DNA of 57,486 bases from Nanobdellota archaeon (GTDB taxonomy: Archaea > Nanobdellota > Nanobdellia > Pacearchaeales > GW2011-AR1): the NCBI GenBank assembly GCA_038045985.1, contig JBBSXA010000030.1, forward strand, positions 1-57,486. Direction: 5' to 3'. The notes beneath the pieces were generated by a model. That model was not told the DNA's origin and searched no databases. It saw only the letters and a list, made by a program, of their open reading frames with translations. Shown in pieces: positions 3,539-55,504 of the stretch. How positions within the stretch are numbered: position 1 is the stretch's first letter; each line of letters opens with the position of its first letter. A program made the position numbers and the translations under genes.

Positions 3539-4057
3539 TTATGTGCGTGTCCATGAACATTCGTAATATGAAACATCGCCTTCTTCATCAAGGATTGCAA
3601 GAAGAAGCTTCTTTTTTGTGCTATGAGCCACCCTATTTTTTGCTGCAAATTCCTGCCATGTGAATTTGTTTGATTCTGTGTCTATAAAAACAATCCATTT
3701 TGCATGAGTATCTCCGGGCTTTTTTCCTTTTTCATAAACTCTGAAATCTGCTCCGAATTTTAGCGCTGTTTTGACAATATAGCCTTTATCTCTAAGATCT
3801 TTGAAGACAGTATATTTTGAATAGACTCTTTTATCCAACTTTTGGAGTTTTTTTATTGCCTGCCCTTTATCAAGAATTTTTCCTTTGCTTAAGATTTCCA
3901 GTTTTTCCTTTTCAATTAGGTACAATGCTTCTGTTATCGTGTACTGAATTTTTTCTCCTAGCGGCTCTCCGAAATGGCTTTTTTTGTGAAGAGAGAAAGC
4001 GTCTGCTGAGTTGCTTGTCACAGAGCTTCCTAAAATGTGCGCTTGGATTTTTTCCAT
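3539..4057 (-). CDS. endA: tRNA-splicing endonuclease
   Basis: LRDKGYIVKTALKFGADFRVYEKG...HAKWIVFI...AHSTKKKLLLAI match EndA catalytic-domain motifs. The first ATG is at 4057; the track start at 4078 is a TTG. Confidence 0.85.
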   Translation of the reverse strand: MEKIQAHILGSSVTSNSADAFSLHKKSHFGEPLGEKIQYTITEALYLIEKEKLEILSKGKILDKGQAIKKLQKLDKRVYSKYTVFKDLRDKGYIVKTALKFGADFRVYEKGKKPGDTHAKWIVFIDTESNKFTWQEFAAKNRVAHSTKKKLLLAILDEEGDVSYYECSWTRT

Positions 4058-4109
4058 TGTAAAAAGAATAGAAGGCAATATTTAAAAGTTCCTAGATGAT
4101 TATTGTTTT

Positions 4110-7100
4110 ATGGCATACAACTTCCAATTAATAGAAAAGAAATGGCAGAAGAAGTGGGAAGAAAAGAAGATTTTTCAAGTGAAGGAAAATGAAAAAGGCA
4201 AGAAGAAATTTTATGTCCTTGACATGTTTCCTTACCCCTCTGGAGAAGGTTTGCATATGGGTCATGCTTTTGTTTTTTCCCTAGGAGATATTTATGCCAG
4301 ATACAAGAGGCTTCAAGGATACAATGTTCTTTATCCTATAGGCTATGATTCTCTTGGATTGCCTGCAGAGAATGCTGCAATAAAAAAAGGAATTCATCCG
4401 GAGGTTTATACTGCAAAGTCTATTGCTAACTTTATGAAGCAGCAGAAGGCGATGGGATGGAGTTATGACTGGAACAGAATGTTCAAGACTTCTGATCCTG
4501 AATTTTATGTATGGGATCAGTGGATTTTTCTTAAAATGCTTGAAAAAGGGCTTGCTTGCAGGAAAAAATCTGCTGTTAACTTTTGCAGTAAATGCCAAAC
4601 TGTGCTTGCTAATGAGCAGGTTGTTGGAGGTAAGTGTTGGAGACATGAAGATACTAATGTAGAAATTAAGCATCTTGAGCAATGGTATTACAAAACTACA
4701 AATTATGCTGAAGAGCTGCTTTCAGGTTTAGATAAATTGGAATGGCCTGAAAGAGCTAAAACAATGCAGAGAAATTGGATTGGAAAAAGCTATGGGACAG
4801 AGATTGAGTTTGAAGTTGAGAATCCAGAAAGAAAGATTTCTAATGTTGTTATTGTACATGGAAGTGCTGATGACAAAAATGATAAAGAGTACAATAGACA
4901 TTGGATGATTTGGGCTAGAAAAAGATTGGAAGAAAATGGTATTAAGGTGCTTGCTCCAAATATGCCAGAACCTTGGGGTTCTAGCTATGAATCTTGGAAG
5001 AAAGAATTTGAAAAAATTTCGAACGGTATTAATGAAAATAGTATTTTAATTGGGCATAGCAGAGGTACTGCTTTTTTTGTAAAATGGCTGGGAGAAACTG
5101 GGAAAAAAGTTAAGAAATTAATATTAGTTGCTCCTTGGAAAGTTCCTGATAAGGAATTTAAAAAAAGTTTTTATAATTTTGACATAGACATAACTGTGAA
5201 GAATCAGGTTAATGAAATTGTTTATTTTACTTCTAATAATGAGGAAGCAGATGGAAGAAAAAGTTTGAAGATGTTTTTGGATGTAATTGGTGGCAGGGTT
5301 GTGGAATTAAAGAATCATGGACATTTTACGCGTGAAGAAATGGGGACAGACGAATTCCCTGAAATTTTGGCAGAAATTAATCCAAATGAAAAATGGCCTA
5401 TATTCACAACGAGACCCGATACTGTCTACGGAGTTACTTTTATGGTGATTTCTGCACAACATTCTAGACTTTACGAATTAGTTACAAAAGAACATAAAAA
5501 AAGTGTTGATAATTTTTTGAAGAAACTTGGGAGCGTTTCAGAGAAAGAACTTGAGCTTATGGGAAAAGATGGTGTTTTTACAGGCTCTTATGCAATTAAT
5601 CCAATGACTAAAGAAAGAATTCCTATTTACGCAGGAAATTTTGTTGTTGCAGATTATGGTTCAGGAATGGTTATGGCTGTTCCTGCGCACGACCAGAGAG
5701 ATTATGAATTTGCGAAGAAATATGGTTTGAAAATTAAGCAGGTTATTTCTCCAATGTATACAAATATGACTGGTTCTGATGCTTATAGGCATAATGAAGA
5801 GCCTGTTAAAAGAAAAGCAGTTGTTGCGATTGTTAAAAATCCAAAGAATAACAAATATTTACTTTTGCAGTGGAAGAAAAATGATTGGAGGGGTTTTGTT
5901 ATTGGAGGTCTTGAAAAAGGAGAAGATCTAATAAAAGCTGCTAAAAGAGAGATTGAAGAAGAAACAGGATATAATGATATTAAATTTGTTAGAAAGCTTG
6001 ATGGTGTTGTTCATTCTAGGTTTTACCATGAAGTTAAAAAGCAGAATAGAGAAGCTGAATTTGAAACTATTTACTTTGAGTTAAACAGTGAAAAGAAAAG
6101 CAAAGTAAAGGAAGAAGAAAATAAGATTCATTCTATTGTTTGGATTGATGAAGATAAAGTTGATAGTTTTCTTGTTAGAGATAATGATATTCAAGTTATT
6201 TGGAGAAAGTTTAAAGGCAAGGAGTGTTATGAAGGCTACGGAAAGCTAATTAATTCAGGAGATTTTAATGATCTTGATAATGATGAAGCGAAAGAACATA
6301 TTGTCAAGTGGCTTGAATCTAAAAAACTTGGGGGAAAAAAAGTTCAGTATAGGCTAAAAGATTGGCTTATTTCCAGGCAAAGATATTGGGGAACACCTAT
6401 TCCTATTGTTTATTGCGATAAATGTGGAATTATTCCTTTGCAGGAAAAAGAACTTCCAGTTACACTACCTAAGAATGTAAAGTTTGGAAAAGGAAATCCT
6501 CTTCTTTCCAATGAAAAATGGATTAATACTAATTGTCCTAAATGCAAAGGAAAAGCTAAAAGGGAAACAGACACTATGGACACTTTTGCGAATTCTTCAT
6601 GGTATTATTTAAGATATGCTGATTCAAAAAATAAGAAAAAGATATTTGATTCTAAAATGGCAAACTATTGGTGCCCAATAGATCAGTATATTGGCGGGCC
6701 AGAGCATATAACAATGCATTTAATTTACATAAGATTTTACACAAAATTTTTGAGAGATTTAGGTCTTATTGACTTTGATGAACCTGCTTTGAGATATTTC
6801 ACTCAAGGAGTTGTTAAAGGCAGTGATGGAAGCAGAATGAGCAAGTCTAAAGGAAATGTTGTAGAACCTTTGGATACTATTGAAAAATATGGTGCTGATT
6901 CTTTGAGATTATATTTAATGAGCGCTTCTGCTCCGGATAGTGATTTTGACTGGGATGAGAAAGGCATTCAAAGTAGCTTTAAATTTTTGCATAAAGTTTA
7001 TGATTATTTTTATGATGTTAAATTTAGCAAGGCTGATGAAAGAGTTGAGAGCAAGCTGAACAAGACTGTCAAAGAAGTTGCAAATTTAGTTGAAGATTTT

Positions 7101-7580
7101 AAGCATAATTTGGCAATAATAAAAATTAGGGGATTTTTTGATTATATTTATGAAAAAAAAATTGACAAAAAAACTGTCGAGAGTTTTTTGAAGATTTTGC
7201 ATATTTATTGCCCTTTTATTACTGAGGAAATTTGGGCAAACATTGGCGGAAAAAATTTCATAAGCTTAAGTTCTTGGCCAAAAGTTGATGAAAAAAAGAT
7301 AAATGAAGAGTTTGAAAAAGAAGATAAGATGATTGATGAAGTTGTCAGTGATGTGAATAACATTGTTAAGATAGTTAAAGAGCGCGGAAAAGAAGTTAGC
7401 AAGCTGTATTTGTATGTTATTCCTAAAGATGTCTCAGTTTATTTAGCTAATAAAAGCGAAATAGAGAAGAGAACTACTCTTAAGATGGAAGTTTACGCAG
7501 TCAATGACATAAATAAGAAAGATCCTGAAGGAAAATCTTCAAAGGCAAAGCCAAATCGTCCAGCCATATATTTAGAATAA
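4110..7580 (+). CDS. leuS: leucyl-tRNA synthetase, bacterial-type, with two in-frame domain insertions (1156 aa)
   Basis: FPYPSGEGLHMGHAF (HIGH), GYDSLGLPAENAAIKKG, TTRPDTVYGVTFMV and AVPAHDQRDYEFAKKYGL (CP1 editing), YRLKDWLISRQRYWGTPIP, SKSKGN (KMSKS). Confidence 0.95.
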   Translation: MAYNFQLIEKKWQKKWEEKKIFQVKENEKGKKKFYVLDMFPYPSGEGLHMGHAFVFSLGDIYARYKRLQGYNVLYPIGYDSLGLPAENAAIKKGIHPEVYTAKSIANFMKQQKAMGWSYDWNRMFKTSDPEFYVWDQWIFLKMLEKGLACRKKSAVNFCSKCQTVLANEQVVGGKCWRHEDTNVEIKHLEQWYYKTTNYAEELLSGLDKLEWPERAKTMQRNWIGKSYGTEIEFEVENPERKISNVVIVHGSADDKNDKEYNRHWMIWARKRLEENGIKVLAPNMPEPWGSSYESWKKEFEKISNGINENSILIGHSRGTAFFVKWLGETGKKVKKLILVAPWKVPDKEFKKSFYNFDIDITVKNQVNEIVYFTSNNEEADGRKSLKMFLDVIGGRVVELKNHGHFTREEMGTDEFPEILAEINPNEKWPIFTTRPDTVYGVTFMVISAQHSRLYELVTKEHKKSVDNFLKKLGSVSEKELELMGKDGVFTGSYAINPMTKERIPIYAGNFVVADYGSGMVMAVPAHDQRDYEFAKKYGLKIKQVISPMYTNMTGSDAYRHNEEPVKRKAVVAIVKNPKNNKYLLLQWKKNDWRGFVIGGLEKGEDLIKAAKREIEEETGYNDIKFVRKLDGVVHSRFYHEVKKQNREAEFETIYFELNSEKKSKVKEEENKIHSIVWIDEDKVDSFLVRDNDIQVIWRKFKGKECYEGYGKLINSGDFNDLDNDEAKEHIVKWLESKKLGGKKVQYRLKDWLISRQRYWGTPIPIVYCDKCGIIPLQEKELPVTLPKNVKFGKGNPLLSNEKWINTNCPKCKGKAKRETDTMDTFANSSWYYLRYADSKNKKKIFDSKMANYWCPIDQYIGGPEHITMHLIYIRFYTKFLRDLGLIDFDEPALRYFTQGVVKGSDGSRMSKSKGNVVEPLDTIEKYGADSLRLYLMSASAPDSDFDWDEKGIQSSFKFLHKVYDYFYDVKFSKADERVESKLNKTVKEVANLVEDFKHNLAIIKIRGFFDYIYEKKIDKKTVESFLKILHIYCPFITEEIWANIGGKNFISLSSWPKVDEKKINEEFEKEDKMIDEVVSDVNNIVKIVKERGKEVSKLYLYVIPKDVSVYLANKSEIEKRTTLKMEVYAVNDINKKDPEGKSSKAKPNRPAIYLE
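4842..5385 (+). other. Insertion 1 in LeuRS: YdeN/RBBP9-like alpha/beta serine hydrolase domain
   Basis: VVIVHGS...HWMIWARKRLEENGIKVLAPNMPEP...ILIGHSRGTAF...LILVAPW...NHGHFTREE. This is the family-typical order with a GHSxG nucleophile and a C-terminal HGHF. It lies between the IEFEV segment and TTRPDT. Confidence 0.7.
5754..6235 (+). other. Insertion 2 in LeuRS: NUDIX hydrolase domain
   Basis: Perfect Nudix box GGLEKGEDLIKAAKREIEEETGY (GX5EX7REUXEEXGU) at ~5904..5972. It lies between the CP1 end (KQVISP) and the YGKLINSGDF segment. Confidence 0.8.
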
Positions 7581-7591
7581 GACGATTTGGC
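7550..7591 (+). promoter_or_regulatory. 11-bp perfect hairpin whose 20-nt loop contains the leuS stop codon
   Basis: gccaaatcgtc (7550-7560) pairs with gacgatttggc (7581-7591); the TAA is at 7578-7580. Confidence 0.6.
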
Positions 7592-7610
7592 ATTAATTCG
7601 TCCAAGCTTG

Positions 7611-7652
7611 GCCAAATTAAAGCCAGGAAGGCCTGCAATTTATTTGGAGTGA
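7611..7652 (+). repeat. Ghost copy of the LeuRS C-terminus (AKLKPGRPAIYLE*), in frame with leuS after its TAA
   Basis: Compare the real end SKAKPNRPAIYLE*. The differences are mostly synonymous (cgt/agg, cca/cct, gcc/gca, ata/att, tta/ttg, gaa/gag). Confidence 0.7.
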
Positions 7653-7656
7653 TTTT

Positions 7657-20660: not shown

Positions 20661-20795
20661 TGAAAACAACCTACGGTTTTTTTCGATTTTCCTCAATTTG
20701 CAATTTATGTCGATTTCTAATTGCCTCAGAGGAAATCGCGTAGACTCTCCTTTTTGCTTATTAGATAAAAGAGTATTTAAAATTTGGGAATTTTA

Positions 20796-20867
20796 TGAGC
20801 CTGCCAGGATTCGAACCTAGATCAACGGGGCCGAAACCCGTCATTCTATCCATTGAACTACAGGCCC
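20796..20867 (-). tRNA. tRNA-Arg (anticodon UCG)
   Basis: Minus strand: GGGCCTG TA GTTC AATGGATA GAAT G ACGGG TTTCGGC CCCGT TGAT CTAGG TTCGAAT CCTGG CAGGCTC A. Confidence 0.85.
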
Positions 20868-20962
20868 TTAATAATTTAATAATGATTAGGTTTTTATACT
20901 TTAGGAAAAATCAACGCCGTTTTATAGAGAAGATTTTTATACTTTCGTCTTTTCTTTTTAAC

Positions 20963-22228
20963 ATGAAAATCTCAAAAGGAGCTAAATCAGGAGATTATGT
21001 AGAAGTGCATCTTGGAAAGCTGATTTATGAGGGTGTTTTGCTTGAGAGTTCTGAAGATGAAAAGGATGTTGTTTTGCTGAAGCTTGACAATGGCTATAAT
21101 CTAGGATTTAATAAAAAAGATGTTCTTGAAGTAAAATTGATTAAGAAAGGTGAAGAAAAAAAAGGAAAAATTGAATTAAGGAAAGATTCTGAAAAGCCGA
21201 TTGTTGCCTTGATTATGACTGGAGGAACTATTGTCAACAGGCTTGACCCTAAAAGGGGAGGCGTCAGCCCTTTAACTTCTCCTGAAGATTTTTTTACTTT
21301 TTACCCTGAGATTTTTGAAATCATAAGTCCTAGAATTGAAATGCCTTTTATGAAAGCTTCAGAAGATATGGACTTCAAGGATTGGCAGAAAATTGCAAAA
21401 GTTGTTGAGAAGCATCTTAATGATCCTCATGTCAAAGGAATAATGATTACTCACGGGACAGATACTTTACATTACACTTCTTCTGCTTTGAGCTTTTTTC
21501 TTGGAAAAGTGAATAAGCCTGTGGTTTTGACTTATAGCCAGAAAAGTTCCGACAGGGCTTCAAGCGATGCCAACATGAATTTAAATTGCGCTGCTCTGGC
21601 TGCTATTTCAGACATTGCTGAAGTGATGCTTGTTGGGCATGCTTCTATGAGCGATGATTTTTGCTACGCAATGCCTGGAGCAAAAGTCAGGAAGCTTCAT
21701 ACTTCAAGAAGAGATGCCTTTAAAGTTGTGAATGGAAAGCCTTTTGCAAAAATAAAAGATGAGGTTGAGATTCTTAGAAGTTTTAACAGAAGAAGCAGTA
21801 ATAAGATTAAGGCTGATACAAATTTTGAAGAAAAGGTCGCTTTGATTAAATTTTATCCCGGGCAGGATACTGAGATTCTTGACTATTATACAAAGAAAGG
21901 ATATAAAGGGATTGTTGTTGAGGCTCTTGGATTAGGGCATGTTTCTGTTAATGGAAGAAAATCTTGGATTAAAAAATTGAAAGAAGTTCAGAAAAAAATG
22001 ATTGTTTGCTTTGCCGCCCAGACAATTTATGGAAGATTAGATTCTTATGTTTACAGTAATTTAAGAGATATAGCTAAGACAGGAGTTATTTATCTTGAAG
22101 ACATGCTTGCTGAAACCGCTTTTGTGAAGCTGGGATTTGTATTAGCAAAAACAACGAATAAAGAAGAAGTAAAAAGATTAATGCTTACAAATATGGTTGG
22201 GGAATTGAATGAGAGATTGGAGGAATAA
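20963..22228 (+). CDS. gatD: Glu-tRNA(Gln) amidotransferase subunit D
   Basis: Asparaginase-like motifs MTGGTIV and THGTDTLHYTSSALSF. The start is moved to the ATG at 20963 because the track ORF start overlaps tRNA-Arg. Confidence 0.9.
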   Translation: MKISKGAKSGDYVEVHLGKLIYEGVLLESSEDEKDVVLLKLDNGYNLGFNKKDVLEVKLIKKGEEKKGKIELRKDSEKPIVALIMTGGTIVNRLDPKRGGVSPLTSPEDFFTFYPEIFEIISPRIEMPFMKASEDMDFKDWQKIAKVVEKHLNDPHVKGIMITHGTDTLHYTSSALSFFLGKVNKPVVLTYSQKSSDRASSDANMNLNCAALAAISDIAEVMLVGHASMSDDFCYAMPGAKVRKLHTSRRDAFKVVNGKPFAKIKDEVEILRSFNRRSSNKIKADTNFEEKVALIKFYPGQDTEILDYYTKKGYKGIVVEALGLGHVSVNGRKSWIKKLKEVQKKMIVCFAAQTIYGRLDSYVYSNLRDIAKTGVIYLEDMLAETAFVKLGFVLAKTTNKEEVKRLMLTNMVGELNERLEE

Positions 22229-27193: not shown

Positions 27194-27706
27194 ATGAAGA
27201 CATTTTTCTTTTTAGGTTTTGGCACTATGCTATTTATTTTAGCAGGTGTACTGACAATTTCTTTCTGGTACGACTTCACTAATAATTGTGAGGACTACCT
27301 TAAGTTGGCCGGAGATGCGCCGACTGTCGAGAAGGCAAACGAGTTTCTTGGGAAAGCATTGGGATTCCTGGAAAACAATGGCCTTACCTCTGGAAATTCA
27401 GCCTTCTTTTTTAAAAAGCCAGATGCTGATATCGGCATTTGGTACAATCAAATTAAAGGGGCTTATTCAACAACGCAGGACATTCTTGAGAGAATGAGAA
27501 ACAGCGCTTCTCCAGTTTCTCAGCTTGAAAAGGACAATGCTCTGATGAAAATCAGGGAAGTTGTTCTTGATGCGGGGAAAAATGGAGTCGAGGTTACTGT
27601 GCCAGCCCACATTAGCTGGTTTCCTCACCAACTTCTCATGCTTTTTCTCTGGACTCTCTCTGTTGGTTTCATTATTTTCGGGTTCGCTATTCTGATAGAG
27701 TGGTGA
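27194..27706 (+). CDS. island membrane protein: N- and C-terminal TM helices flanking a helical ectodomain
   Basis: GGAGG lies 4 nt before the ATG; both ends are hydrophobic. Confidence 0.6.
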   Translation: MKTFFFLGFGTMLFILAGVLTISFWYDFTNNCEDYLKLAGDAPTVEKANEFLGKALGFLENNGLTSGNSAFFFKKPDADIGIWYNQIKGAYSTTQDILERMRNSASPVSQLEKDNALMKIREVVLDAGKNGVEVTVPAHISWFPHQLLMLFLWTLSVGFIIFGFAILIEW

Positions 27707-27748
27707 TCACATAACAAGGACAAGCCGAATTTTTCAGTGAGGTGAAAC

Positions 27749-28316
27749 ATGAATCTTTTTTTTCAAATTTGGGGCGGAGTTTTCTATCTTCTGAACAAGA
27801 TTTTTTTCTCCATTTCTGAAAGAAAAGGAAATGAAGAGAGAAAAAGGAAGTGGAAGATAGCAGCATGGTCAGTCTATCTTATAGGACTTCCTGGCTGGCT
27901 TTACATATTGACTTCCAGCAAAGCTTGGATAGTTGCTTCTGTTGAGCTGTGTGGTGCTCCCTCAATGATTGTGGGACTTGCTGCAGCTATAAAGGGAAAT
28001 GAACAAAATTTCCCAGTGGTTTTATTATGTTGCAATGATAGGCTCTGTTTTTGGCATTGCTCTCAGCATCTATGATTTCGGAGGCATTACTAAATGGAGC
28101 CAGGTGGTTGAGCTGGGAGTTGTTGCAGGGTTTCTTTTTGGCTCTTATCTATTGGCTAAAGAGCACGCCTCCGGATATCTCTGGTTCATGCTTATGAATT
28201 CCTCGAATTGCATTCTTATGTATATTCAGGGGAATTTCTACATGGCGTTGCAACAGGCTTTGTCTTTACTTTTTGTTGTTTATTCTTTCTATCTAAGGAA
28301 GAAGCACATCACTTAA
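27749..28316 (+). pseudogene. multi-pass membrane protein split by a frameshift near 27995-28015
   Basis: ORFs 27749..28075 and 27999..28316 overlap in different frames, and both are TM-rich. The join lies in aaagggaaatgaacaaaatttccc. Confidence 0.5.
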
Positions 28317-28330
28317 CTCATGGAGGAGTT

Positions 28331-28567
28331 ATGATCTTTTTGAGATTTTGGATTGCTTCAGCTTGTGAGGCAGTTCTGAGATTTGTCTACACGTTTGTGG
28401 CTTTGGAATTTGTTTCCAGACACATTCCTGTAGTTGTGAGAAGGCATTTGTTCTGCTTTTGGACAAGTGCTAAGTTAAACCTAATAAGGGAGGAGGTGAA
28501 GCTTAAGATTTCTATCTTGATTTTCGTGATGGTCTCCATACTCTGGTTTGCTGGAGACAAGTGTTAA
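28331..28567 (+). CDS. small island protein (78 aa, hydrophobic)
   Basis: GGAGG lies 4 nt before the ATG at 28331. Confidence 0.5.
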   Translation: MIFLRFWIASACEAVLRFVYTFVALEFVSRHIPVVVRRHLFCFWTSAKLNLIREEVKLKISILIFVMVSILWFAGDKC

Positions 28568-28597
28568 CCTTTAGCTTAATTTTGTCTTGGAGGAAAC

Positions 28598-28768
28598 ATG
28601 TCAAAAAATTTATCCAAGGACTTTCTTATTCAAGAAGGTCTTAGTGAGATTGAAGAGCCAAAATCTGGGGCGGGAGCTTTATCTTTTGCTCAGTTCTATG
28701 GAACCGATAACCCTTTTTGGCTTCTTGTTGAGCCACAGCTTGATGTCTTTGAAGGAGATGATTTTTAA
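28598..28768 (+). CDS. small acidic island protein (56 aa; not in the ORF track because it is <60 aa)
   Basis: ttGGAGGaaacATG; product MSKNLSKDFLIQEGLSEIEEPKSGAGALSFAQFYGTDNPFWLLVEPQLDVFEGDDF. Preferred over the TTG-started track ORF 28587..28811. Confidence 0.5.
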   Translation: MSKNLSKDFLIQEGLSEIEEPKSGAGALSFAQFYGTDNPFWLLVEPQLDVFEGDDF

Positions 28769-28833
28769 CGCGTTTCATCCTGTCGAACACAACAACAATT
28801 TTCACAATTGAATTTGAACTTTTTTTCAGGAGA

Positions 28834-29121
28834 ATGGAGTTTCTGAATATGAAGAATGGAAAAAACGGAAATTCAAAAAGGGAGAAGAAAGGAAAGTCTT
28901 TCAATGGATACATCCTCAAGGAGCTCGTAGAGAAGATTAATTCTCGAATGAAAGATTACGAGCTCAAGGCTATTCTTATTGGGAGAGGAGTTCATATCGA
29001 TACACGGAAGTTCTACCCGGTTATAACAGCCTTGAGAATCAAAAGAGGGAGGCTTTGCAAACAGATAATGTCAATGGCTCCTGAGAAATCAGAGGCTAAA
29101 GACAAGAGAAAAAGAAAGTAA
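28834..29121 (+). CDS. small basic island protein (possible nucleic-acid binder)
   Basis: cAGGAGaATG; Lys/Arg-rich at both termini. Confidence 0.55.
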   Translation: MEFLNMKNGKNGNSKREKKGKSFNGYILKELVEKINSRMKDYELKAILIGRGVHIDTRKFYPVITALRIKRGRLCKQIMSMAPEKSEAKDKRKRK

Positions 29122-29183
29122 CAAACAACAGTTTCGAGCTAAACTCGAAAAATCAAACACAAACCATTTCTCAAGGAGATTTT

Positions 29184-29354
29184 ATGAAAAATTCTCATGT
29201 TTTGGCAATTTTATTTGCCGCCATCCTTTTTCTTTTAGGTGCACTTTTTGCTCCACCTATCTTTCTCAGAGTGTCTATTGCTCTGATTGCCCTGAGTTTG
29301 ATTTTTTCCTTACTTCACAAAAAGCACAGAAAAGATCCTAACAGTCACGAATAG
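29184..29354 (+). CDS. small two-TM island protein (56 aa; not in the ORF track)
   Basis: AAGGAGattttATG; product MKNSHVLAILFAAILFLLGALFAPPIFLRVSIALIALSLIFSLLHKKHRKDPNSHE. Confidence 0.5.
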   Translation: MKNSHVLAILFAAILFLLGALFAPPIFLRVSIALIALSLIFSLLHKKHRKDPNSHE

Positions 29355-29435
29355 CGGTTGCTCAGATGGTTTCTCAGACATTGGATGTCGGCATTTCTTC
29401 GGCTTTGGATTGGTGAAATCTTTCAAGGAGAATTT

Positions 29436-29759
29436 ATGTCGACGATGAAAGAAAAGAAAGGCTTGTCATTTAATATATGGATTGGCCTTTTAAGCCTTGC
29501 AGGATTGGCTTTGTATGTTTATGCCAACAGAGAGATTGTTTCTACCGTCTTTCTCGCGGAAGACTTCACAGCTTATCTTGGCAGAGGACTGATTTGCGGG
29601 ACTACAGGTTTTTTTTGGAGCCCTCTTATTGGTTTTCTTAAAGCACTTTTCACGGTTCTTGCCTTTGTTGTTGCTTTGGCGATTGTTGCATTTTTCTTCG
29701 CGTACATTATCTTTGGCTTCACATTTCAAGATGCTCTCAAAGCTGTGAGCGCATTGTAG
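29436..29759 (+). CDS. island membrane protein (~3 TM)
   Basis: AAGGAGaatttATG at 29436, in frame with track ORF 29358..29759. Confidence 0.55.
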   Translation: MSTMKEKKGLSFNIWIGLLSLAGLALYVYANREIVSTVFLAEDFTAYLGRGLICGTTGFFWSPLIGFLKALFTVLAFVVALAIVAFFFAYIIFGFTFQDALKAVSAL

Positions 29760-29767
29760 GGGGATTT

Positions 29768-30166
29768 ATGGAAATCAGAGACATAGTGTTTGCGATTATT
29801 GCAGTAGGATTAGTGGTGATTGTTTTTATAACAAAGCTTTCATCATACCAATCTGCAAAGGCACAGAAAACTTCGAGTTATGCAATGATCGCAATTGCAG
29901 CTGTTTTTATACTGATTGTTTTTGGATGGCTTGCCACTCAATACGATTATGATAAAATGTCTGCAGATTTTAAAGGGGGAAAGCTGGAACTTTCTTTGCA
30001 GCAATCAAAGAGAAATTCTGCCGGGGATTCTGTTTCTGTTCAAGATTCTATTAATTTTGAAGTTCCTGCCGAGAAGATAAATCAGGGATGGAAGATGATA
30101 GGAAAGATTGCCGGGAGCTTGGATGAATTGTTTAACAAACCTAAAGACAAACCTGACAGCTTGTGA
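29768..30166 (+). CDS. island membrane protein (2 TM plus a soluble tail)
   Basis: GGGGGatttATG; two hydrophobic helices. Confidence 0.55.
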   Translation: MEIRDIVFAIIAVGLVVIVFITKLSSYQSAKAQKTSSYAMIAIAAVFILIVFGWLATQYDYDKMSADFKGGKLELSLQQSKRNSAGDSVSVQDSINFEVPAEKINQGWKMIGKIAGSLDELFNKPKDKPDSL

Positions 30167-30228
30167 GGAGGAATATGGAAAGTGATGAACTTTTAATTAT
30201 TAACAATAAACTTTGAAGGAGGTTCTAT

Positions 30229-30525
30229 GTGAGTGAGCATGTTTCAAAAGAGGTTTTCGCTATTGTTCGCGCTCCTAAAAATATTGGAGATCATAGCAAC
30301 TATATTGTTACTTCTCCTTATTACAATCAGGGGCAGTTCAAGAGAGATGATTCAATAACTGTAGATCGAAAGAAATGGCTGGAAAATTTTCAACCTGAGG
30401 AAGGCGTATTTGTCATTCTTTTGGGTGTCTTTGGGAAACCTAAAGGTTTGCGTGCAAGCTCTGCTAGGTTCGCTACTCCTTATGAAATACAGTTTCATAC
30501 AGCAAAAAGCAAAGAGCAAGATTAA
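30229..30525 (+). CDS. small soluble island protein
   Basis: AAGGAGG precedes a GTG start. Confidence 0.5.
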   Translation: MSEHVSKEVFAIVRAPKNIGDHSNYIVTSPYYNQGQFKRDDSITVDRKKWLENFQPEEGVFVILLGVFGKPKGLRASSARFATPYEIQFHTAKSKEQD

Positions 30526-30538
30526 CGAAAGGATTTTT

Positions 30539-30790
30539 ATGAGTTTCATTCAGATTTTAGAATTTATTGTTGTGATGCTACTCATTTTGGTAGCTTTCAC
30601 TCAAGTGATTATTCCTCTTTTGAAGGGCACTCTTGTTTTTCCTTTTTTTCGCAAGGCTAGGAAGAAGGAGCATGAGATTGTTTCCATTGAGGAAGAGAGA
30701 GATGAGGTTCGGCTTGATCAAGAAATTGCTCGAAAAAGAGACAAGCTTGATCAGGAGAAGAAAAAGGGAGGTTTGTCAAAGGACAATTAA
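30539..30790 (+). CDS. small island protein: one TM plus a charged coiled-coil tail
   Basis: ATG at 30539, in frame with track ORF 30410..30790; hydrophobic N-terminus. Confidence 0.5.
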   Translation: MSFIQILEFIVVMLLILVAFTQVIIPLLKGTLVFPFFRKARKKEHEIVSIEEERDEVRLDQEIARKRDKLDQEKKKGGLSKDN

Positions 30791-30853
30791 TCCTTTTTAC
30801 ACGTTCGTTTTTTAAAACTTTAAACTGTTAACATTAAACTTTTGGAGAATTAT

Positions 30854-32047
30854 ATGTCAATCCAAAGCAGTTCTAGCATGAGGCAATTGTCGAAGATTCT
30901 TGGTATTGGTATTGCCGTCCTTGTTTTTTTGTTCTTGATAGTCGGAGCAGGAAAACTTTGGCAGAATGTCGATGCTAACGAGATCGTCGTGATTCAAGCC
31001 CCCGTGTCTGGAGAGTTGAACTGGCACGTCACACCTGGGCTTAAGTGGCAGGGATGGGGTTCAGTTACTACCTATCCAAAGAGAGCGATTTACCAGTTTG
31101 AGATTTCTGTGCGCTTCAATGATGGCGGCCATGGCACCATGTTTGGCAGTGTCCAATATGATATGCCAAATGATGTTGATAATCTTAAAAAACTACACAC
31201 GAAGTACGGATCAAAGGAAGCGATTCAGAGTCAGCTTGTTAAGACTGTTACTGACAAGTCGGTATACATGACCGGGCCTTTGATGACTTCAAAAGAAAGT
31301 TATGCTGAAAAGCGTAATTATCTTCTAAGCTATGTTGAAGATCAGATTGTGCATGGAGTCTACAAGACTCTCTCGAGAGAAGCAAAAATGATTGATCAGA
31401 TGACTGGGGCAGAGAAGACTATCACTGTTGTCGAGATCGTTTTGAAAGAGGGTATTCCTGAAAGGCAAGAGGAGGCTGTTCTAGCTAGTTTTGGCATCAG
31501 ACCGTTTAACTTTGCCATCGAAAAACTTCCATATGATGAGGCTGTTGAAACTCAAATAAAGATGCAGCAGCAAATCACTATGGATGTCCAGACAGCAATT
31601 GCCGATGCGAAGAAGGCTGAACAGAGGACAATCACTGTTGTTGAACAAGGCAAGGCTGATGCTGCCAAGGCGAAGTGGGATCAAGAAGTCATAAAGGCCC
31701 AGCAGGTTACTGAAGCTGAGCAGAAGTTGGAAGTTGCTCGACTTGGGGCTCTTGCTGCCGAACAATACAAAAAGGAGCAGATTCTTAGAGCAGATGGTGA
31801 TTCCGAATACAAGCGCAGAGTCATGGAAGCTGATGGCGCTCTTACTCAGAAGCTCGCGACTTACAAAGACGTCAATATCCGGTATGCTGAGGCTATTGAG
31901 AAGTACACAGGAGCTTGGGTACCTTCTATTGTTATGGGAGGTGATGGGAAATCCGGAACTTCAAACGGTGCTCAGGATTTGATCAGTCTCCTTTTAGCAA
32001 GGACTGCAAAAGACCTTTCCCTAGATCTTAGCGTCAAGGGCAAGTAA
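30854..32047 (+). CDS. SPFH/Band-7 (flotillin/YqiK-like) membrane-scaffold protein
   Basis: N-terminal TM, an SPFH-like core (EIVVIQAPVSGELNWHVTPGLKW...), and a long Ala/Glu/Lys/Gln coiled coil (AKKAEQRTITVVEQGKADAAKAKWDQEVIKAQQ...). Confidence 0.65.
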   Translation: MSIQSSSSMRQLSKILGIGIAVLVFLFLIVGAGKLWQNVDANEIVVIQAPVSGELNWHVTPGLKWQGWGSVTTYPKRAIYQFEISVRFNDGGHGTMFGSVQYDMPNDVDNLKKLHTKYGSKEAIQSQLVKTVTDKSVYMTGPLMTSKESYAEKRNYLLSYVEDQIVHGVYKTLSREAKMIDQMTGAEKTITVVEIVLKEGIPERQEEAVLASFGIRPFNFAIEKLPYDEAVETQIKMQQQITMDVQTAIADAKKAEQRTITVVEQGKADAAKAKWDQEVIKAQQVTEAEQKLEVARLGALAAEQYKKEQILRADGDSEYKRRVMEADGALTQKLATYKDVNIRYAEAIEKYTGAWVPSIVMGGDGKSGTSNGAQDLISLLLARTAKDLSLDLSVKGK

Positions 32048-32126
32048 GTCTTCTTTCAGACACACTCTGGCCAAGAGTGTTATGCACCTTCCTCTCTTGT
32101 ACTGAGAGTTACGCTCTTTCTGCCAT

Positions 32127-32603: not shown

Positions 32604-32662
32604 TAAATAAGGTTTATTTATTCTTGAGCAAATTTAATAAACTCTTATTTCTTTTTGCTTTT

Positions 32663-34102
32663 ATGAATATTAATTATGGAGACATGGGTTTTAAGGCTGG
32701 ACTGGAAATTCATCAGCAGCTTGACTCTAAAAAATTGTTCTGCAACTGCCCGAGCATTTTAAGAGGAGACACCCCCAGCTTTGAGATTAAGAGAAAATTG
32801 CATACTGTTGCGGGCGAATCTGGAGAAATTGATGTTGCAGCAGAGCACGAAGCTGCTCTTGACAGGGAGTTTGTTTATCAGGCTTACGATACTACATGCC
32901 TGGTTGAGCTGGATGAAGAGCCTCCCCATGAAATAAATAAAGATGCGTTAATGACTGCTTTGCATATTTCTCTTTTGATGAATGCCAAGATAATTCCAAT
33001 TTCACAGATAATGAGGAAGACGGTTATTGATGGAAGCAATACTGGAGGTTTTCAGAGAACTGTGATGATTGCCAGGGATGGTTTTATTGAGACTTCTTAT
33101 GGAAATGTTCGAATTTTAGGAATTTTTCTTGAAGAAGATTCTGCCAGACTTGTTTTGAAAGATGAAAAAAGCGCTGTTTACAGGCTTGACAGGCTTGGAA
33201 TTCCTTTAATTGAAATTGCCACAGAGCCTGATTTGAAAAATGCAGAACACGCAAAAGAAACTGCTTTGAAAATTGGAGAGATACTTAGAGCGTGCAAAGT
33301 AAAAAGAGGAATTGGAACTATTAGACAGGACATTAATATTTCTATAAAAGGAAGCAATAGAGTTGAGCTTAAAGGCTTTCAAGATCCTAAAATAATGTTG
33401 AAGAGTATTGAAGAAGAAGTAAGAAGGCAGCTGGCTTATGTTGGCGCTGGAAAAAAAAATTCTTCTGAAGTCAGAAATGTTTTGCCTAATGGAAGTTCTG
33501 AGTTTATGAGGCCGATGCCTGGTGCAGACAGAATGTATCCTGAAACTGATCTTCCTTTGCTGAAAATTCCATTGGATTTTATTAATAGCGCTAAGAAAAA
33601 CTTGCCTAGGCTAAGAGAAGAAATTGAAGAAGAATTAAGAAATCAGGGGCTTAGCCAGGAATATATTTCTATTCTTTTGAAATCTAATGAGATTGAAAAG
33701 TACAAAGAACTTTATTATATTGTTCCAAAGCCAAATTTTGTTGCAAAGGCTGTTTTGGTTTTTCCAAAAGAGATTGCCGCGAAAAAAGGGATTGCATTTG
33801 AAAGGGTTTTAGAAATACTCGATGAGCATTATTTTGAAGTTTTTAATAAAGTTGCCCAGGGAAAACTCAAAGAAGAAGATGTGAAGCATATTTTTGAGAG
33901 GCTTGTTGATGGAAAGAGTTTTTCCGAAGCTGCGAAACTTGACAAGCTTAGCGTGAATGATTTGGAAGAAGCTGTCCTTAAAATTATGAAAAGCAAGCCA
34001 GGACTTTCAGAGAATGCTTATATGGGGTTGGTTATGAGGGAGCTTAGAGGAAAAATTAGTGGAAAAGAAGCGAGCGAAATAATAAAGAAACTTATGCACT
34101 AA
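32663..34102 (+). CDS. gatE: Glu-tRNA(Gln) amidotransferase subunit E (short form)
   Basis: GLEIHQQLDSKKLFCNCPS, a GatB/E catalytic core and a C-terminal YqeY-like tail MGLVMRELRGK. The ATG at 32663 is preferred to the TTG at 32624. Confidence 0.88.
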   Translation: MNINYGDMGFKAGLEIHQQLDSKKLFCNCPSILRGDTPSFEIKRKLHTVAGESGEIDVAAEHEAALDREFVYQAYDTTCLVELDEEPPHEINKDALMTALHISLLMNAKIIPISQIMRKTVIDGSNTGGFQRTVMIARDGFIETSYGNVRILGIFLEEDSARLVLKDEKSAVYRLDRLGIPLIEIATEPDLKNAEHAKETALKIGEILRACKVKRGIGTIRQDINISIKGSNRVELKGFQDPKIMLKSIEEEVRRQLAYVGAGKKNSSEVRNVLPNGSSEFMRPMPGADRMYPETDLPLLKIPLDFINSAKKNLPRLREEIEEELRNQGLSQEYISILLKSNEIEKYKELYYIVPKPNFVAKAVLVFPKEIAAKKGIAFERVLEILDEHYFEVFNKVAQGKLKEEDVKHIFERLVDGKSFSEAAKLDKLSVNDLEEAVLKIMKSKPGLSENAYMGLVMRELRGKISGKEASEIIKKLMH

Positions 34103-34136
34103 TTTTTCTGCAGCTTCGTCCAAGCGTGGCCAAATC

Positions 34137-34193
34137 AGAGGAAAGATTTCAGGGAGCGAGGCTGTTGAAATAATCAGGAAGCTGATGAAGTGA
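34137..34193 (+). repeat. Ghost copy of the GatE C-terminus (RGKISGSEAVEIIRKLMK*), +1 frame relative to gatE
   Basis: Compare the real end RGKISGKEASEIIKKLMH*. Many differences are synonymous. It is preceded by tcgtccaagcgtggccaaat (34116-34135). Confidence 0.7.
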
Positions 34194-34330
34194 GAAGATT
34201 TAATCTTTAATGCCAAATAATTTAAATATTTTGGCATATTACTTTTTGCTGTGCAAAAAGTGTTGCATAAAACCCCCAATTTTTTTGGCTCCAAAAGATT
34301 TATATAGTTTTATTTTATAACATATGTTAT

Positions 34331-34924
34331 ATGAAGAAACCGATTGTTCATAAAAAATACCTTAGGTTATATGAAGAAACTGCTAGGCAGAAGGTTTTAG
34401 AAGTTTTGTTTAGATTTCCTGATAAAGAATTTAGCCTTTCTGATTTAGCAAAAGAGGCTAGTGTTGCAAAAGCTAATATAGGAAAAATATTGTTGGAATT
34501 GGAGAAGTGGGAGTTTATTTCAGTAACCAGGCTTAGTAAGATTTGGAGAATTATGGCTAATAGGGACAATTGGGATTTTAAGAAAAGTAAAATAATATAC
34601 AATTTAAATTTTGTTTATAAGAGTGGTTTAGTTGAATTCCTAATAGATTATTTCAAAAATCCAAAATGTATTGTTCTTTTTGGGAGTTTTGGGAAGGGCG
34701 AAGACATTGCCAGTTCAGATATAGATATAGCTATAGAAAATGAAAATTCTGAAGGTTATAAAGTTACTGGCTTGAGAGAACTTTTAGAGTTTGAAAAAAT
34801 AATCAGAAGAAATATACAACTCCACCTGTTTAATCAAAGTAATGTCGATGAAGGCGTTTTTAACAATATAATCAATGGTGTTGTTTTATTTGGATTTTTG
34901 GAGGTTAATCATGGAAAAAAATAA
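34331..34924 (+). CDS. minimal nucleotidyltransferase (MNT) with an N-terminal wHTH; antitoxin-type partner of HEPN
   Basis: LFGSFGKGEDIASSDIDIAI (GSx10-DxD). Confidence 0.75.
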   Translation: MKKPIVHKKYLRLYEETARQKVLEVLFRFPDKEFSLSDLAKEASVAKANIGKILLELEKWEFISVTRLSKIWRIMANRDNWDFKKSKIIYNLNFVYKSGLVEFLIDYFKNPKCIVLFGSFGKGEDIASSDIDIAIENENSEGYKVTGLRELLEFEKIIRRNIQLHLFNQSNVDEGVFNNIINGVVLFGFLEVNHGKK

Positions 34925-35354
34925 AATCGAAGAATTAATCAGCAAGAATTCTTTAAGAAGGAGAGAAATTGACTTTGAGAGAGTTAAATCTCTCTTAAAA
35001 TCTGCAGAAGTTACAGTAAAGGTAGTAAAAAATATTTCTTTGAATGATGAAACCGCAACAACAATTTTTAGAGAGCTTTATGAGGCAATAAGGCAATTAG
35101 GAGAAGCAAAATGGTGGCTTAATGGTTACGAGCCCTACGGATTAGGCAGTCATGGCCTGGCTTTAGACATTCTAAAAGAATTTAATGTTAAAAATAAAGT
35201 AAAACTTAATTATCTTGATAGATTTAAAAAAATACGCCACGATGCTAATTATAGAGGAATGTTTGTATCTTTTTCTCAAGCTAAAGAACTTATTGAATTT
35301 TGGGATTCTTGCGGAAAAGAGATTTTAGAGTCGATTAAGAAGCTGATGAAATAA
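34911..35354 (+). CDS. HEPN-domain protein (toxin-type partner of MNT)
   Basis: Overlaps the MNT stop by 14 nt. All-helical, with KKIRHDANYRG resembling the HEPN (PF05168-like) signature. Confidence 0.6.
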   Translation: MEKNKIEELISKNSLRRREIDFERVKSLLKSAEVTVKVVKNISLNDETATTIFRELYEAIRQLGEAKWWLNGYEPYGLGSHGLALDILKEFNVKNKVKLNYLDRFKKIRHDANYRGMFVSFSQAKELIEFWDSCGKEILESIKKLMK

Positions 35355-55411: not shown

Positions 55412-55504
55412 CGCCCAGGGTAGGACTCGAACCTACGACCCCACGGTCACTGTGTTTTATCAAACGTAACAGCCGTGTGCTCTAACCGACTGAGCTACCC
55501 GGGC
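55412..55504 (-). tRNA. tRNA-Asn (anticodon GUU) with a ~19-nt intron at 37/38
   Basis: Minus strand: GCCCGGG TA GCTC AGTCGGTT AGAGC A CACGG CTGTTA [cgtttgataaaacacagtg] A CCGTG GGGTC GTAGG TTCGAGT CCTAC CCTGGGC G. Confidence 0.85.

Follow-up and report, generated by a model that had tools for sequence, protein, structure and literature searches.

Introduction

In several fungal mitochondrial genes (Glomus atp6, atp9, cox2 and nad3; Allomyces atp6) a mobile endonuclease ORF has brought in a C-terminal gene end and the native C*-terminal end stays downstream; the two copies share 64–81% nucleotide identity and encode near-identical protein, and a recombinational or horizontal origin has been inferred (PMC3630166). 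These hybrids appear to be the closest functional parallel to the modules described here, which share with them the order of in-frame gene end, insert and displaced copy of the same end (PMC3630166), low nucleotide identity between copies with similar protein (67% at gatE, compared with 64–81%) and, in the case of leuS, a native relic that is closer to relatives than the inserted copy. The inserts differ, however: an ORF of ~1 kb encoding a LAGLIDADG or GIY-YIG endonuclease separates the termini in the fungal hybrids, while the modules contain only 34–40 nt (34 nt at gatE, 39 nt at leuS) and no ORF. Young duplicates can here come from local sequence, and the hosts are archaeal chromosomes, not organelles.

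REP/REPIN sequences, i.e. GTAG- or CGTC-tagged palindromic repeats, are 20–40-nt imperfect palindromes described as bacterial in a paper whose text does not contain the word ‘duplication’ (PMC3733652). The element reported here resembles them in its conserved mismatches, an adjacent conserved tetranucleotide and a location mostly just 3′ of ORFs in sense orientation, and resembles the CGTC type in that no dedicated transposase lies beside the copies (PMC3733652). Its 24-nt unit is likewise a short repeated stem-loop palindrome, and some copies are inside genes and translated in frame. It differs from REPs in a shorter stem, a long target duplication of variable length, an archaeal host and a tag (ARAG) that follows the hairpin on its 3′ side and is copied along with the target. 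In structure it also resembles the Rickettsia palindromic elements, which occur in frame within genes. To our knowledge hardly any mobile DNA of DPANN archaea has been described, and full-text literature searches found no description of such an element in this group.

Two duplicated gene ends in one contig

The window, i.e. the whole stretch of DNA analysed, comprises positions 1–57,486 of contig JBBSXA010000030.1 of assembly GCA_038045985.1 (+ strand) and has the content of an ordinary core chromosome, including genes for several aminoacyl-tRNA synthetases, EndA, GatD, FtsZ, TFE and DisA, among others. Comparison of the tail of every window ORF with the 170 nt downstream gave scores of 70 for gatE and 53 for leuS against a background of ≤33. 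Second, out-of-path gene ends (‘ghosts’) at gatE (34,137–34,193) and leuS (7,620–7,653) are the sole ORF-tail echoes in the window, each located 3′ of a copy of a 20-mer, TCGTCCAAGC[T/G]TGGCCAAAT (34,116–34,135 and 7,598–7,617, both + strand). The window contains no further copy, including any with up to 3 mismatches (0.01 expected). The original prediction, made from the letters of the window, had placed the same 20-mer between live stop and ghost terminus in both genes and had asked that an assembly artefact be excluded; the arrangement was found as described, and in Logan contigs from two groundwater samples (four runs) both loci recur without a single difference or alternative joint. Misassembly specific to this MAG is therefore excluded, at the level of contigs rather than raw reads, where rare variants could escape the comparison.

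The gatE locus

gatE, encoding Glu-tRNA(Gln) amidotransferase subunit E (32,624–34,102, + strand; Pfam GatB_N, 9.6e-51, and GatB_Yqey, 2.5e-08; 61 orthologous loci), ends in the live terminal copy X, RGKISGKEASEIIKKLMH* (34,046–34,102). In MFE folds a 13-bp stem (stem 1) with an 8-bp perfect core joins a 5′ arm within the coding sequence (GGAAAAATTAGTG; 34,049–34,061) to a 3′ arm (CACTAATTTTTCT; 34,097–34,109) that gives His-stop instead of the consensus Lys-stop. The 24-nt hairpin element follows (gCT-TCGTCCAAGCGTGGCCAAAT-c; 34,113–34,136; closing pair G:C, centre base G), then the ghost terminus X′, RGKISGSEAVEIIRKLMK* (34,137–34,193), all on the + strand. The ghost starts 34 nt after the live stop, with an X-to-X′ period of 91 nt, and begins with the AGAG motif that trails most elements. 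Since stem 1 holds the last codon (CAC) and the stop (TAA), the terminal His of live GatE derives from the stem arm; the ghost and 28/43 orthologues have Lys at this position.

The ghost lies in the +1 frame, and its synonymous differences and higher G+C content, all part of the original prediction, were confirmed: live and ghost ends are identical at 38/57 nt and 14/18 aa and have G+C contents of 0.31 and 0.45, respectively. Differences affect 11/19 third codon positions and 8/38 first and second positions, and one Ser codon is AGT in the live copy versus TCA in the ghost. Codon usage of the live terminus is typical of the host (51st percentile); the GC3 of the ghost (0.56) is equalled in only 2.3% of host 18-codon windows. 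The divergence fits two long-functional, separately evolved copies better than a drifted local duplication, because of the atypical ghost GC3, the change of only 4/18 aa against 11/19 third positions and the AGT/TCA switch. The two copies match orthologues equally well at the amino acid level, with the live copy closer in nucleotides. Databases contain no empty-site relative of this gatE closer than 55–60% identity, and no relative of any kind closer than 55–69%.

The leuS locus

leuS, encoding leucyl-tRNA synthetase (4,110–7,580, + strand; Pfam tRNA-synt_1, tRNA-synt_1_2 and Anticodon_1; 54 orthologous loci), has the same organisation on the same strand. The live terminal copy X, KPNRPAIYLE* (7,548–7,580), carries a derived PNRP variant common to the module-bearing leuS loci L117 and L144. 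A 5′ arm within the coding sequence (GCCAAATCGTC; 7,550–7,560) forms a perfect 11-bp stem with a 3′ arm starting straight after the live stop codon (GACGATTTGGC; 7,581–7,591), followed by the hairpin element (aAT-TCGTCCAAGCTTGGCCAAAT-t; 7,595–7,618; closing pair A:T, centre base T) and the ghost X′, KPGRPAIYLE* (7,619–7,653, codons 7,620–7,653), which has the consensus native form and adjoins the stop of the convergent alaS at 7,657. Live stop and ghost are separated by 39 nt and the period is 72 nt. The fold of the module is unusually stable (z = −4.19; 0/200 shuffles equally stable), and in L144 a synonymous CGT-to-CGC change in the stem-1 5′ arm is compensated by A-to-G in the 3′ arm (one case).

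The third residue of the 10-aa terminus is Gly in the ghost and in 38/49 orthologues, Asn in the live copy; the ghost is nearer in nucleotides than the live copy to 40/49 orthologue ends, and 32/35 positions match the native leuS ends of co-occurring organisms. The leuS ghost is thereby supported as the ancestral-type end. All four module-bearing leuS loci (window, L117, L144 and L179) have a PN-type live end; the module is present in 0/38 PG-type orthologues.

Between the window and L117 the gene body is 60–70% identical, with third-position identity at identical amino acids of 0.53 (n = 231), compared with 15/16 in the last 19 codons; these codons plus the module are ~90% identical. Conservation extends to stem arm, linker and hairpin, beyond which the downstream flanks are unrelated. 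With this difference in third-position identity and the conserved module segments, the terminal block plus module would either be of more recent origin than the gene, having arrived by recombination or transfer, or be under constraint in its nucleotide sequence. That live end and module are common to three lineages with almost no synonymous divergence implies that the PNRP end and module were probably spread or homogenised by recombination. The live leuS terminus is atypical of the host in codon usage (5th percentile), so that codon usage as a test for the foreign copy gives opposite answers at gatE and leuS.

The proposal that old gene ends had been left behind thus stands for leuS, where alignment with orthologues points to the ghost as the ancestral-type copy; at gatE the same alignment favours neither copy at the amino acid level.

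A dispersed hairpin family

The 20-mer is the core of an imperfect-palindrome hairpin, N-AT-TCGTCCAAGCKTGGCCAAAT-N′, with stems of 4 + 1 + 3 bp, two mismatches and a 4-nt loop. The closing pair, formed by the base three positions 5′ of TCG and the base directly 3′ of AAAT, is Watson-Crick in 62/65 distinct copies (A:T 33, C:G 20, G:C 9; 26 ± 3.7 expected), and covariation under the hairpin model, calculated for 73 members including variants, exceeds that of 500/500 shuffles. As closing pair and covariation extend the 20-mer core, the unit is 24 nt long. One internal position has a non-Watson-Crick pair in 73/73 members, and the centre base of the palindrome is G in 45 copies and T in 20. The hairpin is followed by ARAG in most of the 65 copies (A 54/65, purine 65/65, A 50/65, G 56/65) and is in sense orientation relative to protein genes in nearly all cases. 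CGTC occupies bases 2–5 of the 20-mer, within the stem/internal loop, while the flank that is conserved is the 3′ ARAG; the stem and loop geometry does not fit that of the CGTC-tagged REPs. Pairing is not significant past u4–d2 family-wide, ruling out a general in-register extension of the palindrome beyond 24–26 nt; such an extension could be read by eye at some loci only (gatE, leuS and L121).

Searches for further copies, as the original prediction had suggested, identified ~80 further loci, nearly all in Woesearchaeota, Pacearchaeota or Nanoarchaeota MAGs. An exact scan of genomes for the 20-mer returned 19 contigs, 16 of them from MAGs or single-cell genomes of these three groups and three bacterial, in line with the ~4 chance matches estimated; in metagenomes, 62/63 matching contigs are AT-rich and DPANN-like and one is GC-rich. 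IMG/VR viral contigs gave 0 matches. Copy number is 2 per 57 kb in the window and up to 3 per MAG. Unselected DPANN DNA around gatE/leuS orthologues contains only two family members in 590 kb, indicating that the element is abundant only in some lineages, this one included. No Rfam family matched the hairpin, at the gathering threshold or at E≤5, so that a known RNA family is not supported. The two or three genuine tRNAs were all that ARAGORN and Rfam identified in the window, and a tRNA-fragment origin of the 20-mer was rejected by eye.

Tandem duplications at the hairpin

The hairpin usually marks the point where two tandem copies of local sequence, variable in length (~9 to 67+ nt), meet. 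Flanking repeats are present at most genome loci and alignable at 9/18 copies, and in clear cases the downstream copy X′ begins 1–3 nt past the hairpin. Measured X-to-X′ distances are 33, 42, 54, 60, 65, 66, 72, 84, 91 and 107 nt; with this range the repeats cannot be a fixed target-site duplication. Only 34–70 nt of DNA lie between the duplicated copies at every locus. Identical or near-identical duplicates (L109, 23/23; L121, 17/17; L141, 18/18; tRNA 3′ ends, 17–18/18; L093, 24/28) indicate that the duplication can arise from local DNA. No systematic G+C difference between live and ghost copies was seen across loci.

In modules at 3′ ends the upstream copy is in frame and keeps the ORF, the downstream copy is out of the reading path, and the live stop is 2–23 nt 5′ of the 20-mer in 25/26 cases. 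gatE and leuS stay intact because the element falls in the last codons, between two copies of each gene’s end. Perfect stems of ≥8 bp were found within 60 nt 5′ of the hairpin at 17/60 copies versus 3–7/60 in control segments, with the 3′ arm ending 3–9 nt before the hairpin and beginning at or beside the stop codon. These second stems differ from locus to locus, and the live stop often falls within or beside them.

The original prediction had proposed that a common recombination event or element replaced the 3′ ends of gatE and leuS. The two window copies are instead of different subtypes (G:C with centre G at gatE, A:T with centre T at leuS) within a dispersed family of ~80 loci in many genes, which argues against a single event. 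Nor were the 3′ ends simply replaced: the element sits within a tandem duplication of local sequence, whose two halves are identical where the copy is young.

Other genes carrying the element

Modules at 3′ ends were identified in genes for PolD DP2, FEN1, GyrB, enolase, phosphoglycerate mutase, ribosomal protein S7, a P-type ATPase, ThrRS, agmatinase, a pilus or archaellum ATPase and membrane proteins. Copies translated in frame as the 8-codon segment (N)SSK(R/L)GQ(I/M/V) are found in Kae1, the inter-domain linker of ThrRS, an FmrO-type methyltransferase, the N-terminus of Tag, the C-terminal tail of PEP synthase and N-termini ahead of transmembrane helices. In L121 an antisense module at a 5′ end duplicates the opening 16 nt of a gene that is mre11-like, as judged from its translation. 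Three independent tRNA genes are followed, after the complete tRNA, by the element in opposite orientation and then by a ghost extending from T-loop to 3′ end, and in L095/L128 the hairpin lies within a canonical tRNA-Ser(UGA) intron.

The FEN1 gene has independent insertions in L009 and L143, six nucleotides apart and of different hairpin subtypes. L009 has a single module (X-H-X′), L143 three nested copies (X0-hairpinB-X1-hairpinA-X2), of which only the first is in frame. The most-downstream copies of both encode an identical PIP-box end, KQKSLGGWV*, with 5 synonymous/stop-preserving differences, while in-frame or intermediate copies differ far more. By this comparison the FEN1 ghost is a recently displaced native end.

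Searches for a mobilising enzyme

A Pfam scan of the 46 window ORFs identified no transposase, integrase, reverse transcriptase or nuclease candidate and no RAYT (Y1 HUH transposase) gene. In 1.1 Mb of DPANN DNA no larger parent element bounded by half-sites was seen, including any with half-sites as terminal inverted repeats. IS200/IS605 single-strand transposons do not duplicate their target, and they require a different hairpin at each end. The hairpin with its one-sided short target motif, strong strand/orientation bias and possible trans mobilisation resembles these elements and their miniature derivatives, from which it differs in its duplications and in that no TnpA or TnpB gene was seen; a link may serve as a lead. 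Mutagenic homing of the DGR type was rejected because repeat differences are not adenine-specific and the window has no reverse transcriptase. By hand count, 2/19 gatE differences fall at adenines with the ghost as template and 11/19 with the live copy as template.

Origin of the modules

The combined features are best explained by a REP/MITE-like miniature, non-autonomous mobile hairpin of Woesearchaeota/Pacearchaeota-type DPANN, the insertion of which duplicates the target; we assign this reading a probability of roughly 60%. It departs from typical MITEs in its X-to-X′ period of 33–107 nt, in place of a target-site duplication of fixed length, and in having no separated half-sites in the 1.1 Mb of DPANN DNA that could represent terminal inverted repeats shared with an autonomous IS. 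The element would be mobilised in trans and insert 5′ of ARAG, and the target would be duplicated by the insertion itself or by ensuing repair or replication. In gene-dense genomes, selection would retain only events in which the duplication restores a complete gene end by extending as far as the stop codon or, where the hit is at a 5′ end or gene junction, as far as the start or RBS. The live copy may later be reshaped by multi-nucleotide, hairpin-templated patches, giving rise to stem 1 and to lower identity with the ghost, for which GCGCTTGGA in L009 and AATCGTCCA in leuS are candidate contiguous patches; the lowered identity would stabilise the module against deletion between copies. At leuS at least, module and live terminus may have moved, or been homogenised, between lineages by recombination, with the host’s native end left as the ghost. 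The insertion chemistry and the origin of the stem-1 arm in this scheme are conjecture.

Several observations were counted against the mobile hairpin: duplications of variable length up to ~67 nt are unlike the products of classical transposases, the window has no mobiliser candidate and the 1.1 Mb of DPANN DNA no parent element, the GC3 of the gatE ghost is atypical, and gatE has no empty-site relative.

In a bolder version, possible though doubtful, the modules would be selfish cassettes of a self-rescuing kind, the counterpart in nature of ‘home-and-rescue’ drives. An enzyme acting in trans and specific for hairpins or for structure (e.g. a Y1 HUH transposase or other nuclease) would insert or home the 24-nt hairpin 5′ of ARAG, and the host would survive because the cassette carries a sequence-diverged copy of the essential gene’s end; hairpin-templated divergence would guard against deletion, and recombination would spread the cassette between DPANN lineages.

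Alternative explanations

Horizontal homing would be the primary mode, rather than a later addition, if a cassette of alternative gene end, stop, stem 1 and hairpin spread between alleles or lineages via double-strand-break repair or gene conversion, the live copy always being cassette-borne and the ghost the host’s displaced end; a trans-acting nuclease or HUH enzyme recognising the hairpin or the empty site may be the trigger. This explanation overlaps with the mobile hairpin and draws on the architecture of the fungal hybrids (PMC3630166) and on leuS, with a ~90% identical terminal block between window and L117 in a gene body of 60–70% identity with unrelated flanks, a PN-type live end in 4/4 module-bearing genes set against a PG-type ghost and 0/38 PG-type genes with module, and atypical codon usage of the live copy. 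We consider it unlikely: young modules have mutually identical duplicates and so were made from local DNA, identity does not change sharply at the module in other orthologous pairs, the foreign-looking copy in composition at gatE is the ghost and not the live end, and no nuclease gene was identified.

It is less likely still that the double hairpin after the stop is a host cis-regulatory module, selected as an mRNA 3′-end, stability or termination signal, with the duplication a by-product and conservation due to function, not mobility. Sense-strand bias, the fixed spacing of stop, stem 1 and hairpin, compensatory changes in stems and conservation of leuS module segments above the level of synonymous sites speak in its favour. 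The element is, however, also inside ORFs, at N-termini and in a tRNA intron, and copies at the mre11 5′ end and beside tRNA genes are antisense; it is patchily distributed, with 2 copies in 57 kb here but only 2 in 590 kb of unselected DPANN DNA, and most orthologues are without it.

Removal at the RNA level, with the stretch from live copy through hairpin an archaeal bulge-helix-bulge (BHB) intron or translational bypass element and the ‘ghost’ the true 3′ exon, is very improbable. The family member inside a genuine tRNA-Ser intron with a textbook BHB (L095/L128), the intron-containing tRNAs of this genome, the EndA gene adjoining leuS, and ghosts that keep open frames and homologous stops across lineages (tga, tag and taa at leuS; 5 synonymous changes at FEN1) are the points in its favour. 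A search for RNA runs containing the locus returned none. A BHB scanner for the hBHBh′ motif (two 3-nt bulges, 4 bp apart), validated on the L095 intron (score 9), was negative at gatE, leuS and 11 other loci for any BHB whose intron would be one period long, so that a canonical BHB intron at protein-gene modules was rejected. Splicing is not required for the gene, because the upstream copy continues the frame to a stop of its own; tRNA genes adjoining the element are complete without it, and in L143 only the first of three nested copies is in frame. EndA here, encoded by 3,539–4,078, is of the 179-aa single-unit type, and this type needs canonical BHB motifs.

We give equally little credence to the scar of a larger element, in which a tyrosine-recombinase element carrying a replacement gene end integrated at the 3′ end and lost its interior, so that attL came to adjoin attR and the 20-mer would be an arm site. 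Known elements of this kind include e14 and phage 21, which integrate in the 3′ end of icd, and the tRNA-gene integrating elements of archaea and bacteria. The modules share with these a replacement 3′ end and a displaced partial copy beyond the insert; the insert is flanked by direct repeats of gene or tRNA 3′ ends, the tRNA repeats span T-loop to 3′ end, and the palindrome centre is variable (G 45, T 20), a property expected of the spacer in a recombinase site. All ~80 loci are nevertheless ‘solo’ forms with inserts <70 nt and no element body, recombinase or integrase between the duplicates, copies also occur at 5′ ends, in linkers and in frame within genes, the length and position of the duplication vary even within one gene (FEN1, ThrRS), and viral contigs contain no copies.

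Chance similarity or a chimeric assembly of two strains, for which the only point in favour is that the source is a metagenome assembly, has negligible probability given 20-mer copies expected 0.01 times in the window, outlying ghost scores, identical contigs in two samples (four runs) and the same architecture in MAGs, a single-cell genome and metagenomes of many studies.

Implications for gene calling and gene exchange

If the mobile-hairpin reading is true, the family would show how an insertion into an essential gene can be survived in a very compact genome, namely through duplication of whichever gene end is hit. leuS suggests short gene-end exchange between lineages only 60–70% identical in the gene, which bears on homologous exchange in episymbionts, and the conserved hairpin plus ARAG is a concrete substrate for finding the mobilising enzyme. 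Ghosts, 8-codon SSK[R/L]GQ inserts and altered C-terminal residues have consequences for gene calling as well as for protein alignments and phylogenies, and the genes concerned include markers, among them aminoacyl-tRNA synthetases, GatE (final residue), FEN1 (PIP-box region), PolD and GyrB. By reading, the 20-mer is free of stop codons in all six frames, and a length of 24 nt keeps the reading frame.

Further ghost termini and hairpins

Ghost gene ends, the second, untranslated copies of a C-terminus, also occur behind another kind of element. In two gatE orthologues (L032, 4,470–4,560; L037, 3,523–3,610) the stop codon is followed by a different element of ~53 nt (AATTATTTTCATGGGGTTTAATCCCTACGTTCATTTTGATTTCAAAATGCCGG), and a ghost gatE end (MEIIKKFVK*) comes after it. 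The beginning of the ghost base-pairs with the first 12 nt of this element, and two small hairpins lie within the stretch so enclosed. Ghost termini thus occur outside the 20-mer family as well. In a leuS orthologue (L148, ~2,350–2,400), the final 23–27 nt of the gene occur twice in tandem, as GGACGGCCTGGGATTTTTGTTGAGTAA followed by GACGGGGGATTTTTGTTGAGTGA, and no hairpin separates the two; this arrangement may be a module of live end, hairpin and ghost that has lost its palindrome.

Four loci (L087, L126, L142 and L143) carry another hairpin subtype, A(A/C)CTCG(T/C)CC(T/A)AGCG..G..CGAGTT, 9–55 nt upstream of the main hairpin, with the inner A-T pair changed to T-A (CCA..TGG to CCT..AGG). An extra nested duplication of the FEN1 end in L143 is marked by this subtype. 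In L044 (7,040–7,300), a 128-nt stretch upstream of an ORF is duplicated in tandem, and each unit contains a variant hairpin (TCGCCCAAGCGTGGTCGA); Tandem Repeats Finder left this duplication unreported.

The gatE region

An imperfect 10-bp hairpin (ATGCCAAATA ... TATTTTGGCAT; 34,210–34,237) lies 17 nt past the stop of the ghost gatE and includes GCCAAAT, the heptamer with which the 24-nt hairpin element also finishes on its 3′ side; this structure may represent the native 3′-UTR hairpin of gatE. Further downstream is a nucleotidyltransferase (MNT-like) gene (34,331–34,924), whose promoter and start are covered by a multi-copy segment (34,291–34,385) with matches of 85–95% identity in many separate contigs, from the source metagenomes and from a second study, and with depth up to ~5× that of its flanks. 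The next ORF (34,875–35,354) gave no match in a Pfam search, and together with the MNT-like gene may constitute a mobile toxin-antitoxin-like pair.

On the other side of gatE, between this gene and gatD (20,795–22,228), G+C content rises to 0.39–0.41 across 27,700–32,100, compared with ~0.33 elsewhere. Three ORFs associated with this segment (27,194–27,706, 29,358–30,166 and 30,842–32,047) have no Pfam match, and the segment may be foreign DNA parting the two amidotransferase subunit genes. In gatE orthologues L057–L059 and L065–L075, tblastn matches extend over ~1,830–1,900 nt rather than ~1,460 nt, implying that gatE of many Woesearchaeota would contain an insertion of ~370–440 nt, possibly an intein or an inserted domain.

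The leuS region and tRNA genes

The LeuRS encoded by leuS (4,110–7,580; 1156 aa) has Pfam matches to two domains embedded within the synthetase: a serine hydrolase domain (aa 247–420; 4,848–5,369) and a NUDIX domain (aa 567–684; 5,808–6,161), an architecture that is unusual for LeuRS. The divergent neighbour of leuS, on the reverse strand, is a gene for a tRNA-intron endonuclease of 179 aa (3,539–4,078), and two tRNA genes with long inserts are found on the same strand at 2,007–2,153 (147 nt) and 55,412–55,504 (93 nt).
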